Both the position numbers and the translations under genes were made by a program. A stretch of 64,000 nucleotides of DNA from Shigella phage ESh15. Where the stretch lies: the sequence record ON528725; one strand, written 5' to 3'. Shown here in pieces: positions 3,192 through 56,443 of this stretch (the stretch's first letter is position 1; every line of letters begins with the position of its first letter). The notes under the pieces were generated by a model. The model worked only from the letters and a program-made list of their open reading frames with translations, was not told the DNA's origin and ran no database searches.

Positions 3192-3371
3192 TTATGCAAC
3201 AACCTTTCCAAAACGAGAAGCATCATCTCGAAGAACTGCACGTGCTCTGCGCATGATCTTCTCAACTGTTTGATTAATACGAGAGTTCGACCCACGCTTG
3301 TATCCAGCGCGTTTAGAGATACCATCAACTTTCTTTTCAACTGCTTTCTTTGCTTTAGCTTGTTTTGCCAT
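3192..3371 (-). CDS. small basic protein (59 aa, MAKQAKAKKAVEKK...)
   Basis: Hand-translated ORF below the 60-aa track cutoff; Lys/Arg-rich; followed by a hairpin plus U-tract terminator. Confidence 0.3.
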   Translation of the reverse strand: MAKQAKAKKAVEKKVDGISKRAGYKRGSNSRINQTVEKIMRRARAVLRDDASRFGKVVA

Positions 3372-3536
3372 TATAAATTCTCTTTAAATGAAAATGCAGG
3401 ACTTATTGACATTGCCTGCGCAAGCCCTCAAGGGGAACATAGGTTTTTGGATATTTAACGACCAGGATAACCATAAACCCGTCATCATACCAACCACGAC
3501 TTAGACAGATAACCTTTTTCTGACGCGTGATAGCAA

Positions 3537-4608: not shown

Positions 4609-5179
4609 AAAAGTTTCGAATTTGTTCCCAATTCAGAGAACGAAGATTATTACGAGAGTACTGAATTACTTCAATACCAGCTTGTTTAAGAATGTCTGCC
4701 CAATTTTCAGGAGATCGGTCATATAATTCTGCATATACAACCTTTTTAATACCTGACTGCGTAATAGCTTTAGTGCAATCAGGACACGGAGAAAGCGTCG
4801 TATATAACGTAGCACCTTCAATAGAATTACCTTTACGAGCTGCAAACAAAATTGCGTTCAGTTCCGCATGGATTTCGTTATTAGCAGACCATGCACTATG
4901 AGCGGCCCGGTGTTCTTTAGCCAAAACAAAATTATCGGCCCGTCCAAATGCTGTAGTGCCTTCTTTATGTCCAGCAACGATGACCGGACTTGGTTTATTC
5001 TTCAACCAGCCTTGTTCAGTAGCATGGTCACAACAGTTTATACCACCTGAAGGAGAGCCATTATATCCAGTAGAGATAATGCGTCCATCTTTTTCAATGA
5101 CTGCGCCAACTTTCCATGAACAACATTTTGATTCTTGAGAAATCAGATATGCAATCTGAAGGTATGTGCTAGCTTTCAT
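4598..5179 (-). CDS. cd: dCMP deaminase
   Basis: 193 aa; cytidine/dCMP deaminase zinc motifs (HAE...PCxxC) and close match to recalled T4 Cd. Confidence 0.9.
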   Translation of the reverse strand: MKASTYLQIAYLISQESKCCSWKVGAVIEKDGRIISTGYNGSPSGGINCCDHATEQGWLKNKPSPVIVAGHKEGTTAFGRADNFVLAKEHRAAHSAWSANNEIHAELNAILFAARKGNSIEGATLYTTLSPCPDCTKAITQSGIKKVVYAELYDRSPENWADILKQAGIEVIQYSRNNLRSLNWEQIRNFCGE

Positions 5180-6171
5180 TATTGAACCTTATTAATATAA
5201 GTTAACAGCTCTTTAGTTTGTTCCCAACTGATGCACGCATCGGTAATGGAAACGCCATAGGACATATTATCAGAAATTTTTTGATTTCCTTCATGTAGGA
5301 ACGATTCTATCATAATTCCTTTGACCAAATCATTAGCTGCTAAATTTTTACCAATACCAATTTGATTGCTATAATGCCCATCAGCGTTTGCATGGCTACA
5401 GTCAACCATTACATAATGATTCAGACCTACTGCCCTTGCTTTGTTAGAAGCTTCTTGAATATCAGAAGAATGATAGTTTGGGCCATTGGTCCCACCACGC
5501 AATACGATATGCGTATTCTGATTACCTTCAGCTTCAACAATGCCTACAGTACCATCGACGTCCATACCCATATACCGATGAGGCCAGGCGGCACTATACA
5601 TCGCGTCTGTAGCTACTTTAATAGAACCATTGGTTGCGTTCTTAAAGCCTACGCACATCGGTAGACCTGAAGCAATTTCACGATGTGTCTGACTTTCAGT
5701 CGTACGGGCGCCAATAGCAACCCATGAGAAAATACCAGAAAGATACTTAATCGTGAATGGGTCTAATACTTCAGTTGCTAATGGAAGTCCCATACGTAGA
5801 AGTTTACGACACAATGTTCGTGCAACTATAAGACCGTGGTTCATATCAAAACTTCCGTCAAGATATGGATCATTTACAAGACCTTTCCAACCTACGGTAG
5901 TTCGAGGCTTTTCAAAATAAACGCGCATCACTAACAGAACATTAGGAAGACGAGTTTGAAGTTCAGCCAGACGTTTGCCGTATTCAACAGCAGCAATAGG
6001 GTCATGAATTGAACAAGGACCTACAACAATAAGTTTGCGTGGGTCTTCACCGTTCATAATCGAATTAACTTGTTCGCGATGAGAAGCCACTTGTGATGCG
6101 TAAGCTTCCGACAAAGGAATAATCTCAGCCAGTTCTTTTGGAGAAATAAGTTTTCCGACGACAGGTAACAT
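5179..6171 (-). CDS. 3-deoxy-7-phosphoheptulonate (DAHP) synthase, class I (AroG/AroF/AroH-like)
   Basis: 330 aa; VVGPCSIHDP, VMRVYFEKPRTTVGWKGL, IGARTTESQ motifs as in E. coli AroG; RBS AAGGA; stop overlaps cd start. Confidence 0.85.
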   Translation of the reverse strand: MLPVVGKLISPKELAEIIPLSEAYASQVASHREQVNSIMNGEDPRKLIVVGPCSIHDPIAAVEYGKRLAELQTRLPNVLLVMRVYFEKPRTTVGWKGLVNDPYLDGSFDMNHGLIVARTLCRKLLRMGLPLATEVLDPFTIKYLSGIFSWVAIGARTTESQTHREIASGLPMCVGFKNATNGSIKVATDAMYSAAWPHRYMGMDVDGTVGIVEAEGNQNTHIVLRGGTNGPNYHSSDIQEASNKARAVGLNHYVMVDCSHANADGHYSNQIGIGKNLAANDLVKGIMIESFLHEGNQKISDNMSYGVSITDACISWEQTKELLTYINKVQ

Positions 6172-6291
6172 AACAATCCTTAGGAGATATAAACAGATTC
6201 TGATTCAACAATACCTTTAACCGGATTAGACAGGCTAAGTTGGTAGTGCTCAGATTTATGACCATTCTCTATAGTAATGAGATAGCTCTCA

Positions 6292-15569: not shown

Positions 15570-17265
<1,696 letters not shown>

Positions 17266-17275
17266 TTTATTCTCC

Positions 17276-17344
17276 TTAACAAGCTTTAATCAAAAGATAT
17301 AAACAAACTAACATAACCACTGCCATAATATAAGGTGCTAACAT
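17276..17344 (-). CDS. 22-aa hydrophobic micro-ORF (MLAPYIMAVVMLVCLYLLIKAC)
   Basis: Hand-translated; RBS GAGGAAA; stop lies inside the RBS of the frd.1-position gene; downstream of a promoter cassette. Confidence 0.25.
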   Translation of the reverse strand: MLAPYIMAVVMLVCLYLLIKAC

Positions 17345-17405
17345 TTTGATTTCCTCTCATTTGTTTTGATAGGACTACTATAACATAGCCCTATCTTGTT
17401 GTATA

Positions 17406-17795
17406 CTACTTTTTAAAAGTTTTTTGCAAAAGTTCGATGATTTCGTCGACGTTAGTTTCATCTACTACACAATGAATTTTTGTTACACCTAAAACTATGC
17501 CTTCGTTAACCGGTTGAGGCTTTTCTAAAGTTACCTCGTTGAAGTATTTGAATTCTTCAGGGTAAAGTTCAAAATATGTCTCTTCCGGACCACCAGCAGA
17601 ACATTCTGTGCCATCTTCCATGGTTACACATACTACGTTTAGGCATCCATCATAATCATGTTCCATTCCATTTACAACAAAACTTGGACCATGCTTCTCA
17701 AGCAAATCTAGCATAAAGCCGTTATTGTACGGGGCCTCTTCGATGAATTCATCTTTAAATAAAGGGTTAAAGATATAAGTTTTTCCGATTTCCAT
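17406..17795 (-). CDS. hypothetical protein (129 aa), paralogue of next ORF
   Basis: Shares M(E/K)IGKTYI.NP, LHGPSFVV, YFELY..EFK.F blocks with 17825-18187. Confidence 0.5.
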   Translation of the reverse strand: MEIGKTYIFNPLFKDEFIEEAPYNNGFMLDLLEKHGPSFVVNGMEHDYDGCLNVVCVTMEDGTECSAGGPEETYFELYPEEFKYFNEVTLEKPQPVNEGIVLGVTKIHCVVDETNVDEIIELLQKTFKK

Positions 17796-17824
17796 TTTGA
17801 TTTCCTCGTTTGTTGATTAATAAA

Positions 17825-18187
17825 TTATTTTATTCCAAAAATTTCTTTAATTTCTGCAATCACATCTCGAGCATTTTCTACAGTAACTTCAAAGATGAGT
17901 GACTGTTTAGAAATAGACTCTGGAGATACCTCGATGAAGTGTTTGAACTCATCATCGTAAAGCTCAAAATATGAACCTGGAGGACCATCAAAACCAAATT
18001 CAGTACCGTCTTGCATAGTTACGCTGGTTACGCATTTATCATCATCGTACTCAGTGTTCATGTCCTTTACAACAAAACTAGGACCATGGAGCTCAATCAA
18101 ATCCAACATATCAGCATTTTGTGGGCATTCATTGGCAAATGCAGCTTTACATTCTGGATTGATGATGTACGTTTTTCCAATTTTCAT
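17825..18187 (-). CDS. hypothetical protein (120 aa), paralogue of previous ORF
   Basis: Tandem duplicate, each copy with its own promoter cassette. Confidence 0.5.
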   Translation of the reverse strand: MKIGKTYIINPECKAAFANECPQNADMLDLIELHGPSFVVKDMNTEYDDDKCVTSVTMQDGTEFGFDGPPGSYFELYDDEFKHFIEVSPESISKQSLIFEVTVENARDVIAEIKEIFGIK

Positions 18188-18217
18188 TTCGATTTCCTCA
18201 TTTGTTTTGATAGGTCT

Positions 18218-18246
18218 ATAGTATCATATCTCAAGGAGAAGTAAAC
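18218..18246 (-). promoter_or_regulatory. early promoter for the frd.3-position paralogue
   Basis: Plus-strand atagta at 18218-18223 and gtaaac at 18241-18246. Confidence 0.45.
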
Positions 18247-18269
18247 AACTTTTTCGGTAATTTACAGAT

Positions 18270-18295
18270 ACTCAAAAGGGAGACCGAAGTCTCCC
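18270..18295 (-). terminator. intrinsic terminator downstream of gene 32
   Basis: GGGAGAC-UUCG-GUCUCCC hairpin followed by UUUUGAG on the minus-strand transcript. Confidence 0.7.
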
Positions 18296-18301
18296 GATTT
18301 A

Positions 18302-19204
18302 TTATAGACCGGCTAACAGGTCATCGAGGTCACCATCATCAGAGGATGAGGTAGAGCTCATGAAGTCATCTTCAGTTTTTGCAGAGCTAAAGGCTTCCAT
18401 GTCTTTATCAAAATCGTCAAGGTCAGAAGCAACTTTATCTGCAACAGAAGCTGCTGCGGCTGCTGCACCACCAAGAGCGGCAGTACCAAGAACCTTAGCG
18501 AAAGATTCATTTAATTTTTCAAAGGATTTGAACTGGTCTTTAGCCGTCAAAGTAGTAAGGTCTACCATCTGGTCATATAGTTCTTTCTGGAATGCTTCGT
18601 CATTAATACGAGGAATTTCAGATTGACCCAAGAATTTAGATTCGTCATAGTTGCTAAAACCGGAAACCTGCTTAGCTTTCAGAACGAAGTTAGCACCTTC
18701 AAACGGACAAGTAACATCAACTGGAGTTTCACCCATTTCGGTATCAACTGCAATCATTGCATTGATTTTGTCCCAAATCTTTTTACCGAAACGATATTTA
18801 AATACTTTACCTTCGTTATCTGGAGCTTGAGGGTCTTTAACAACCAGAATATTAGCCCAATAAGAAGTTTTACGTTTCAGTTGAGAATATTCAGTTTTGT
18901 TTGTATTGTACAGGTCATTTTTACTAATGTACTGACATACAGGACAAGAGTCGTAATCACCATGTGTAGAAGAGCAATTTTCAATATACCATTTACCATT
19001 TTTCTTGAAACCGTGGTTAACAAGAATTGCAAATGGTAGTGCATCATCAGTTTTTGCTGGCAAGAAACGAATTACCGCTTGACCATTACCTGATGCATCT
19101 AGCTTCAGCTTCCATTCGCCTTTATCTTCTGAAGAGAAACCTTTGTTACCGTTCAGTTTAGCCATTTGAGCAGCGAGGTCAGCAGTAGATTTACGTTTAA
19201 ACAT
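18302..19204 (-). CDS. 32: single-stranded DNA-binding protein gp32
   Basis: 300 aa; near-identical to recalled T4 gp32 including acidic C-terminal tail. Confidence 0.95.
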
Positions 19205-21546: not shown

Positions 21547-21554
21547 TATAAATA
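21547..21554 (+). promoter_or_regulatory. late promoter TATAAATA for gene 34
   Basis: Exact TATAAATA about 30 nt upstream of the gene 34 ATG in the divergent rnh/34 intergenic region. Confidence 0.7.
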
Positions 21555-31031: not shown

Positions 31032-31691
31032 ATGGCAACACCAAAAGTGTCATTTTCGCCTAGTGATATTCTATTTGGGTTGCTAGATCGTATTTTCAAA
31101 GATAACGCTACTGGAAAGGTTTTAATGTCCCGAGTAGCGGTAATTATTCTTTTGTTCCTAATGGCACTAATATGGTACAAAGGAAGTATTTTGCTGGATT
31201 ATTATGTAAGATCTAAGTATGATACTTATACTGAAATAATCCAAAAAGAACGAGCTTTACGTTTTGAATCTGCGGCTCTAGAACAACTGCAAATAGTTCA
31301 TATCTCATCTGGTGCAGATTTTAGTGCTGTGTATTCTTTCAGACCTAAAAACTTAAATTATTTCGTCGACCTTATAGCTTATGAAGGCAAACTACCTAGC
31401 ACAATTTCTGAAAAGTCTCTTGGTGGATTCCCGGTGGATAAAACGGCCAATGAATATATAATTCATTTAAGTGGCCGTCATTTCTCGTCTAAATCAGAAT
31501 TTGCATTTTTGCCTACAAAATCTAAGACTGCCGAACTTTCTTATATGTATAGTTGTCCATACTTTAATTTGGATAACATCTATGCTGGAACTGTGACGAT
31601 GTATTGGTATAAGGGGAATAATATACTTGAGGAAGACCGCTTAGCGGCTATATGCAACCAAGCGGTCCGAATACTAGGAAGGGCTAAATAA
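31032..31691 (+). CDS. t: holin T
   Basis: 219 aa; single N-terminal TM and large periplasmic domain; close to recalled T4 T holin. Confidence 0.92.
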   Translation: MATPKVSFSPSDILFGLLDRIFKDNATGKVLMSRVAVIILLFLMALIWYKGSILLDYYVRSKYDTYTEIIQKERALRFESAALEQLQIVHISSGADFSAVYSFRPKNLNYFVDLIAYEGKLPSTISEKSLGGFPVDKTANEYIIHLSGRHFSSKSEFAFLPTKSKTAELSYMYSCPYFNLDNIYAGTVTMYWYKGNNILEEDRLAAICNQAVRILGRAK

Positions 31692-54578: not shown

Positions 54579-55100
54579 TTAGTAACCATTATCCTGACGT
54601 TCAAAGTTGTGTTGGTTTTTCAAGTAATACAGTTTAAAGATTTCTTCAGCCGAAAGACCTAGACCTTGGAACATATTCAGAACAAAGTGGAGGATATCAA
54701 TCATCTCGAATTTAATTTCAAGCTGGTCTTCAGGAGACAGTTCATCGATACGTCGATTTCGATATTCAGCATGTTGTGCTTTCCAAGGCTTCCATACACT
54801 GCTGGCGGCTTTTTCACCATTGCTCATACCACCAAGTGAAGTCAGCAGTTCACGGAATTCATCATCAATATAATCTTTCTGATTACGCAGCCAATCAACA
54901 ACATCACCAGCAGTAGCCAATTCATCAGGATGTTTGTTATGTTCAGGCTTGTCATTTGCCAGACGAACCTGTAAAGATTTCTGCATATCAAGCATAACTT
55001 GCAGTGGGTCTTTATCTTCGTGAATCAGAGCATTAAAATAAGCTTCTTCTGCTTTATCAACACCAGAAATAAGTTGTGAACATTCGTTAAAGTGTGCCAT
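54579..55100 (-). CDS. 56: dCTPase/dUTPase gp56
   Basis: Start placed at MAHFNEC (about 172 aa); close to recalled T4 gp56. Confidence 0.9.
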   Translation of the reverse strand: MAHFNECSQLISGVDKAEEAYFNALIHEDKDPLQVMLDMQKSLQVRLANDKPEHNKHPDELATAGDVVDWLRNQKDYIDDEFRELLTSLGGMSNGEKAASSVWKPWKAQHAEYRNRRIDELSPEDQLEIKFEMIDILHFVLNMFQGLGLSAEEIFKLYYLKNQHNFERQDNGY

Positions 55101-55189
55101 TATTTTTCCTTTCAATTCAGTAATAAGTGAGTTAATTCTAACATTAATTTTATAAAGCGTAATAAATAATAGGTAACTAAGGAGATATT

Positions 55190-55387
55190 ATGTTTAAACT
55201 TCCATCGTTAATCAACGCTATTAAAGGCAATAAAAAGAAAACTGCTATCGCTGCAATAGTTGTAGGCGGCATTATTTCATGGAACTTCGGGATTGCACCA
55301 TTGTTAGTTGCCCATGGTGTTATAGTTCCTTCTGTTCCATTGGATACTGTAGTTGATTTGGCCTTTGCTATTATAGGGCTTGTTTAA
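55190..55387 (+). CDS. small hydrophobic membrane protein (65 aa), opposite strand to neighbours
   Basis: Strong RBS TAAGGAGA 6 nt before ATG; hydrophobic core AIAAIVVGGIISWNFGIAPLLVAHGVIV; sits between 56 and 61. Confidence 0.4.
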   Translation: MFKLPSLINAIKGNKKKTAIAAIVVGGIISWNFGIAPLLVAHGVIVPSVPLDTVVDLAFAIIGLV

Positions 55388-56406
55388 ATCTTCGAATAAC
55401 GAGATAATCTCATTTTAGCATGCAACCCACTTGAAATATTCTGTTTCATATATTCTAAAATTTCTTGTGGTGTTGCATTTTCTTTCATTACCATATCATT
55501 CACATCCTTTGATCTCCACGGAGCTCGGTCCCAGAACATGACACGTTCGCCTGCATCAACTAATCGCTTCATGCGAGCTATAGTATCCGGATGCCTAGGT
55601 TCATTATCCATTACCCATACCCGACGTTCTTTAAATGGTACCACATCTAAATCTATTGAGCCGCCTGTAATAGCGATTGCATTGGGTATGAATAAACTAT
55701 CAATAGGGCCTTCCATTACCCAGACGTCTCCTTCCTTAACACGTTCAACACCATAAATTTTTGTTGCAGACTCAAACGCTTTAATAGTGATATATTTTTG
55801 AGGAGCATCTTTGCGAAGTGCACGTCCTTGGAATGACTCGGCCTTCCCGTCTTTATTAAAAATAGGAATCACTAAACGTGGTTCGGGAATCTCTTTCTTA
55901 TACGTACCAGGTTGAATCTTGTTGACCAATTTAGGCCATTCTAGTGTGAACCATAATCTGTTCCACGATTCTTTAGGAATACACCGAGACTTAACATATT
56001 TCACAATAGGATGCTCTTCAGGCAGCTTGTCCAGACGAGAACAAGACGGCAAAGAATTTATAGTCTTTTTCTCCGGTTCTGGTTTATGTTCAGGAACCTT
56101 TTCAATCTTTGGTTCCATTCTAGCTTTTTCTTTACGAACTTCCATTAGATACTCACGATAAAGCTCTTCATCATACTCTTTTAAGTATCCGGAAATCGTA
56201 TTATGATATTGGCAGTTATAGCAATGCACATTACCTGGAGTACCGCCATAATACCATCCGCGAGCTTTCATTGCATCTGTCTGGGAGTCGCCACAAACTG
56301 GACATCGAAATGTTAATTTAAATGTGCTTGAATTATTGATTTGTCTAAAACGAGGTAGGTGAGAAAACGCACGATAAGCAAATTCATTATCTATCCATTC
56401 AGCCAT
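55384..56406 (-). CDS. 61: DNA primase gp61
   Basis: Start placed at MAEWIDNEFAYRA (about 340 aa); zinc ribbon CPVCGDS...CYNC and TOPRIM; close to recalled T4 gp61. Confidence 0.92.
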   Translation of the reverse strand: MAEWIDNEFAYRAFSHLPRFRQINNSSTFKLTFRCPVCGDSQTDAMKARGWYYGGTPGNVHCYNCQYHNTISGYLKEYDEELYREYLMEVRKEKARMEPKIEKVPEHKPEPEKKTINSLPSCSRLDKLPEEHPIVKYVKSRCIPKESWNRLWFTLEWPKLVNKIQPGTYKKEIPEPRLVIPIFNKDGKAESFQGRALRKDAPQKYITIKAFESATKIYGVERVKEGDVWVMEGPIDSLFIPNAIAITGGSIDLDVVPFKERRVWVMDNEPRHPDTIARMKRLVDAGERVMFWDRAPWRSKDVNDMVMKENATPQEILEYMKQNISSGLHAKMRLSRYSKI

Positions 56407-56443
56407 AGTATTCTCCAGAGGCCTTATTAATAAGGCCATCATA

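Follow-up and report, generated by a model that had tools for sequence, protein, structure and literature searches.

A small, probably late-expressed gene for a predicted inner-membrane protein at the 3′ end of primase gene 61 in Tevenvirinae phages

What is a single small gene doing on the opposite strand of an otherwise uniformly oriented block of phage genes? The question is raised by a 65-codon open reading frame (ORF) of Shigella phage ESh15 (ON528725), located on the plus strand at positions 55190–55387 (ATG 55190, TAA 55385–55387) of the 64,000-nt stretch analysed here, which is referred to below as the window. Its predicted product is MFKLPSLINAIKGNKKKTAIAAIVVGGIISWNFGIAPLLVAHGVIVPSVPLDTVVDLAFAIIGLV. 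A preliminary description based on the letters of the DNA had presented it as a lone plus-strand ORF among minus-strand genes, with a strong ribosome-binding site, a stop codon overlapping that of the primase gene and a hydrophobic product, and each of these points was borne out. Every sizeable ORF around it between 51.9 and 58.8 kb lies on the minus strand. A Shine–Dalgarno sequence, AAGGAG, occupies 55179–55184, 5 nt ahead of the ATG, and the protein has a GRAVY index of +1.24. The ORF converges with gene 61, which encodes the DNA primase (55384–56442, minus strand; PHROG 47, E=3.6e-102, and annotated as primase in relatives), and the two genes share 4 nt at their stop codons (55384–55387) inside a TTTAAA palindrome at 55383–55388. 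On the other side is gene 56, encoding dCTPase (54579–55100, minus strand; PHROG 173, E=1.8e-45), whose ATG was taken at 55100 following the annotation of phage HX01, where the CDS measures 522 nt. Over the 1.9 kb that carry genes 56 and 61, the window is 97–98% identical to the Mosigvirus (RB69-like) coliphages HX01, ATK47 and vB_EQ1, and it is itself an RB69-like Mosigvirus. In most Mosigvirus records of the HX01/ATK47/vB_EQ1 type the ORF is labelled "hypothetical protein".

The gene was already known: it has been annotated since publication of the RB69 genome and is catalogued as PHROG 2024. The product matches the profile of that family over residues 1–65 of 65 (E=2.1e-27) and the orthologue of the ORF in RB69 is RB69ORF029w (positions 16061–16258), with which it shares 63 of 65 residues as well as position, strand and the 4-nt overlap with gene 61; nothing material differs between the two. 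Copies in Mosigvirus are 95–100% identical to the window protein. RB32ORF030w, VR7 gp033 and many entries called "hypothetical protein" are further names for members of the same family. The ORF is in this sense an ordinary one and represents neither a new kind of element nor a replacement for dam.

This last idea deserves comment, as the preliminary description had placed the ORF where T4 carries dam and had noted that the methyltransferase gene appears absent. The absence holds, since a tblastn search of the 64-kb window with T4 Dam gave a best hit of E=0.5. The comparison with T4 is nevertheless misleading because T4 has dam plus an orthologue of the ORF. In NC_000866 the latter occupies 17738–17938 on the plus strand (3239–3439 of locus L004) and encodes a 66-aa protein with 55% identity to that of the window. 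It lies between dam (16846–17625) and gene 61 (17935–18963), overlaps the gene 61 stop by 4 nt, and is preceded by an AAGGAGG ribosome-binding site and by a GATAAATA box 28 nt ahead of the ATG. The two loci differ in their upstream neighbour, which is dam in T4 and gene 56 in the window. A replacement of dam by the ORF was therefore rejected, and the ORF is better seen as stably associated with the gene 61 3′ end. The window also shows a strong depletion of GATC: 35 sites are found in positions 1–64000 for about 203 expected under a second-order Markov model (ratio 0.17), all other 4-nt palindromes having ratios of 0.76–1.36, so that this depletion is unique. Elsewhere, a 5.5-kb fragment of RB69 has no GATC for 15 expected, a T4 fragment has 8 for 16 and RB49 has 98 for 98.

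How widespread is the gene? A tblastn search with the window protein returned 692 phage records, 685 of which cover at least 80% of the query, and the frame is intact in approximately 99% of genomes. Among the records are those of T4 and further Tequatrovirus phages, with identities of about 55%. The family occupies one locus, convergent with gene 61, in all ten Tevenvirinae genera sampled (among them Tequatrovirus, Mosigvirus, Gaprivervirus, Dhakavirus, Marfavirus, Gelderlandvirus, Kanagawavirus, Moonvirus and Jiaodavirus). In every Tevenvirinae case the plus-strand gene, or the last gene of a tandem pair, is convergent with gene 61, usually with an overlap of 4 nt. This overlap is annotated in RB69, T4, VR26/VR25 (for the second copy), pzk-kv8, Entb_45 and Moon and is present on two metagenome contigs; for JS98 and PEi20, whose records do not annotate the ORF, it can be deduced from the coordinates of ORF and primase. 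A GGAGG-type or AAGGAG site precedes every orthologue examined. RB49 (Krischvirus, outside Tevenvirinae) has no ORF between genes 61 and 56, which are only 14 nt apart there (L025 491–2052), and for this reason the plus-strand gene at the gene 61/56 junction is specific to Tevenvirinae.

Two subfamilies can be recognized. Type A (AIKGNKK...LWNF...P.A.AHGV..P.V.LD..VD) is found in Tequatrovirus, Mosigvirus and Gaprivervirus, and type B (MGT.FYQIWKL.DKKDKK...LWNLLVVPIAATQGV.LPQVT.EH) in Dhakavirus (JS98), Marfavirus and Gelderlandvirus, while Kanagawavirus, Moonvirus and Jiaodavirus have forms that diverge further. The Gaprivervirus phages VR26 (L005 1501–1698 and 1707–1907) and VR25 (L007, same coordinates) carry a type A and a type B gene in tandem. 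These paralogues are approximately 23% identical, are separated by 8 nt and form a two-gene plus-strand unit, whose second member has degenerated in SP18 and TH54. Truncated or frameshifted copies are otherwise rare (a48, P0085 and P0100), and the copy of phage a20 has lost 3 aa. Judging from these altered copies, the gene appears to be dispensable, or at least tolerant of change, in some phages.

Because a word-based protein search with a single sequence reached close relatives only, profiles were used for the wider survey. Searched exhaustively with an independently built profile, 1.8 billion representative proteins gave only 16 clusters, with lengths of 33–70 aa. A few distant members (PHROG 2024, E ~1e-9 to 1e-11) are encoded by unrelated low-GC phages and prophages, where they are located within or at the end of a late region carrying tail-fibre and lysozyme genes or in accessory regions at prophage ends. 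At two of these loci the distant member is immediately followed by genes encoding a RelA/SpoT-domain protein of 352 aa and a DUF2188 protein (L022, 129–308 followed by 325–1383; L027, 4827–5120 followed by 5137–6195). The block at both loci includes a tail-fibre gene, a gene encoding a small coiled-coil protein with a membrane anchor, and a lysozyme gene, with the distant member at its end.

A short frame, the sole one on its strand in the region and unannotated in the T4 and JS98 reference records, might be a chance product of an AT-rich intergenic spacer. This was examined with Nei–Gojobori comparisons in the plus frame of the ORF. Between JS98 and pzk-kv8, differences at the three codon positions number 8/6/38 (pN 0.106, pS 0.84), and between Entb_45 and PEi20 they number 2/3/21, with a dN/dS of 0.06. 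The window and RB69 give a dN/dS of 0.09, and the window and T4 a dN of 0.43 with synonymous sites saturated. Over all ORF comparisons dN/dS ranges from 0.06 to 0.35. Since the substitutions fall mainly at third codon positions, the ORF codes for a protein, and this protein is under strong purifying selection. In addition, five residues (W31, N32, P37, G43 and P47) do not vary among 28 sequences whose identity falls as low as 17%, and the window product has both the core motif (W-N-x4-P-x5-G-x3-P) and the size (57–70 aa) that go with it. A spurious ORF, which is refuted by these comparative data together with the family-wide profile match, the almost always intact frames and dN/dS values well below 1, was rejected and retains next to no probability.

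When would such a gene be expressed? The promoter scan found no sigma-70-type promoter on the plus strand near the ORF, and inside it, on the minus strand, only a weak sigma-70-like match. Upstream is a late-promoter-like box, AATAAATA (55161–55168, plus strand), of the TATAAATA type with A at position −13 and lacking a −35 element, from which transcription would start near 55174. Counting both strands, the window has only 13 copies of the ATAAATA heptamer, and four of them are boxes located 27–38 nt ahead of late-gene start codons, at 21548 for gene 34, 26628 for gene 36, 31005 for holin gene t and 54571 (minus strand) for soc. These four genes have a common layout, with the box followed after 9–18 nt by AAGGAG and after a further 4–6 nt by the ATG, and the ORF, with 28 nt from box to ATG, is organized in the same way. 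With soc and t in particular it shares the TATAAATA-type box, the short leader, the AAGGAG and the ATG spacing, although soc is on the early strand and t is inside the late tail-fibre block whereas the ORF is on the opposite strand of an otherwise early/middle block.

The box is also conserved across the family. Of ten lineages, eight have the exact heptamer 19–28 nt ahead of the ATG and two have TTAAATA instead, and the distance between box and ATG is kept while the flanks diverge and the upstream gene changes (dam in T4, gene 56 in the window and other ORFs elsewhere). With a heptamer background of 1.7e-4 per nt the nominal probability of this arrangement is ~2e-17, an optimistic figure as the lineages are related yet were treated as independent. 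The first base of the box is A, G or C, and not T, across lineages. An A at −13 is an accepted variant, found in 9 of 50 listed T4 late promoters (PMC2988020); A(−13) is common in RB69, and position −13 is poorly conserved in RB69-type phages (PMC1524935). The late-promoter list that Nolan et al. obtained for RB69 with a hidden Markov model does not include a site at 16.03 kb (PMC1524935), the AF158101 record has no promoter feature at the locus, and literature searches for expression or functional data, or for names of the ORF family, returned nothing relevant. On the strength of its sequence and placement, we infer that the box points to gp55-dependent late transcription.

The box is located back-to-back with a predicted MotA-dependent middle promoter of gene 56 on the minus strand (55135–55159), which consists of a MotA box (CGCTTTA, 55153–55159), 12 nt and a −10 element (TAGAAT, 55135–55140). 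Its counterpart is Pm:16038 of RB69, a published prediction (PMC1524935 supplement), whose MotA box and −10 are the same as those on the minus strand of the window. Together the two elements make up a compact divergent promoter region. That ATAAATA might be kept only as part of the gene 56 promoter was also considered, and was rejected as the box follows the ORF when other genes lie upstream.

The transmembrane prediction that the preliminary description had suggested as a check supports a membrane protein. A transmembrane segment is indicated by hydropathy and by an AlphaFold2 model, and a segment at residues 21–41, without a signal peptide, was predicted for RB69ORF029w by Nolan et al. in 2006 (PMC1524935). 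Kyte–Doolittle averages over 19 residues reach maxima of 1.93 at residues 22–41 and 1.94 at 44–62. The model, based on an alignment of 28 sequences (pLDDT 84), has helices at residues 3–11, 15–41 and 51–61 and an extended stretch at 42–50, so that the coding sequence can be divided into a part with basic residues (1–17), a membrane helix (~15–41) and a tail (42–65) that includes a short helix. N-termini are rich in lysine or arginine in all subfamilies and an acidic residue opens the C-terminal helix. The conserved motif, W-N...P...G-x-x-x-P-x-V-x-L-D/E, is followed by a short amphipathic helix, and the C-terminus, ...LDTVVDLAFAIIGLV, is hydrophobic with two Asp residues only. No Pfam family was identified for the protein; Foldseek found no fold match in the PDB and only the protein's own family in BFVD. 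By the positive-inside rule, this distribution of charge suggests, together with the model, a single-pass inner-membrane topology with the N-terminus in and the C-terminus out. Alternatively, the second hydrophobic stretch (44–62) could form a re-entrant hairpin.

The preliminary description had offered other roles for the locus, one being that the transcript itself is regulatory. The functional product would then be a late antisense RNA that pairs with early mRNA and helps to shut off primase or dCTPase expression, the ORF being incidental. The arrangement lends itself to this: convergence with gene 61 is conserved everywhere examined, the ORF mRNA would be complementary throughout to an early mRNA reading through from gene 61 to gene 56, and T4 has sites where transcription proceeds on both strands, at different times (PMC2988020). 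The terminator scan, moreover, found no intrinsic terminator on the plus strand between 55300 and 64000, so that a late transcript would continue antisense into gene 61. As the primary function, however, antisense RNA is contradicted by selection at the protein level, amino acids being under strong purifying selection while synonymous sites are saturated and the five residues remaining invariant across subfamilies that share ~20% identity. The strong ribosome-binding site is conserved, and members exist in unrelated phages in which no primase gene adjoins. Nor is RNA structure downstream of the ORF stop significant (z=0.10), and Rfam has no plausible match, the two weak hits (a eukaryotic miRNA and a histone 3′ UTR model) being far below gathering scores. 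We therefore consider an antisense RNA very unlikely to be the functional product; what stands of the proposal is read-through into gene 61 as a possible by-product.

The other suggestion was of a toxin-like or exclusion factor. A membrane toxin, second holin or pinholin-like pore former with a direct role in killing or lysis would suit a product that is small and hydrophobic and contains one or two hydrophobic segments, whose promoter architecture is nearly identical to that of holin gene t and whose distant relatives are encoded within 1.5–2 kb of a lysozyme gene; the depositor of OE5505 even labelled the T4-type orthologue "Holin". In its size, its hydrophobic segments and its probable expression late in infection, the protein does resemble the small holins of phages (classes II and III, for example phage 21 S and T7 gp17.5). 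The ORF product nevertheless ends in a hydrophobic and acidic stretch and not in the charged hydrophilic tail typical of holins, and matched none of them by sequence or fold. In T4-type phages the gene is not part of a lysis cassette and does not adjoin the endolysin gene, its neighbours in the window being those for primase and dCTPase, and the window already has a canonical T holin at 31032–31691 (PF11031, E=1.8e-92). No holin family was matched in Pfam or PHROGs. The label is unsupported and a holin role is unlikely. Equally unlikely is a superinfection-exclusion or anti-defence factor acting in the membrane like Imm or Sp. The protein is small and probably located in the inner membrane, Sp and an imm-like gene are encoded nearby, at a distance of a few kb, and distant relatives are found in prophage-end accessory regions, with the RelA/SpoT-domain gene next to them in L022 and L027. 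Exclusion would, however, need early expression, while strand and box point to late expression and the scan gave no plus-strand sigma-70 promoter; the protein resembles neither the Imm nor the Sp family, PHROG 2024 being the sole hit. The toxin or exclusion idea is thus without support in these data. Type I toxin–antitoxin peptides, which are also small and hydrophobic and have an mRNA that overlaps an antisense transcript, appear to fit poorly too: neither a dedicated small RNA nor a host-type promoter was found for the ORF beyond the weak sigma-70-like match on the minus strand, and the ORF has a strong unmasked ribosome-binding site on a short leader and a phage late-promoter box, and the invariant polar, proline and glycine residues of its product suggest a specific interaction.

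Taken together, the observations are explained best, and in our estimation probably correctly, by a genuine but non-essential gene of T-even-type phages (Tevenvirinae) that is transcribed late with gp55 and specifies an inner-membrane product. RNA polymerase with gp55 would transcribe the ORF from the (N)ATAAATA box ~28 nt before the ATG, giving a leader of ~16 nt that includes the strong ribosome-binding site. The 65-aa product would insert into the inner membrane through a single helix (~15–41), leaving its lysine-rich N-terminus in the cytoplasm and its conserved 24-residue tail at the periplasmic face. The tight conservation of the motif suggests that the tail binds a specific envelope partner rather than taking part in generic pore formation. 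We would guess, with low confidence, that the protein plays an auxiliary part in some event at the envelope late in infection, for instance in the timing of lysis, in lysis inhibition or in assembly at the membrane, and antisense transcription into gene 61 would be a side effect. A more general proposal is that every T-even-type phage, T4 included, makes a late inner-membrane protein which acts on an envelope partner through a motif at the periplasmic face, and that its transcript may also silence primase mRNA late in infection. This must be regarded as tentative and rather doubtful. That the ORF is a real gene, with selection on its protein, conserved synteny at the 3′ end of gene 61 in Tevenvirinae and a conserved promoter-like box, is shown by the comparisons; that it is expressed late and that its product is a small inner-membrane protein is probable.

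What the analysis adds to the existing record is that a late-promoter-like box is conserved family-wide, that the family splits into two subfamilies, which form a tandem pair in Gaprivervirus, that distant relatives exist outside T4-type phages, and that the reference annotation of T4 omits the gene. In a model phage as heavily studied as T4, the 310-bp interval between dam and gene 61, unannotated in the curated NC_000866.4 and AF158101.6 records, holds a conserved gene under purifying selection; the recent automated annotation in OZ209023 does call it. If the protein is truly late and membrane-bound, the envelope biology of T-even phages late in infection gains an additional component. Some family members have evidently been given wrong product names, namely "dCTP pyrophosphatase", "DNA packaging ATPase" and "Holin" (records of CGG4-1, L014 1201–1425, and of SAKp28, VAC36 and OE5505), and the HX01 RefSeq record lists several tiny plus-strand ORFs of 25–37 aa in the early region (L001 3012–3089, 1670–1783 and 1790–1867) which look spurious.
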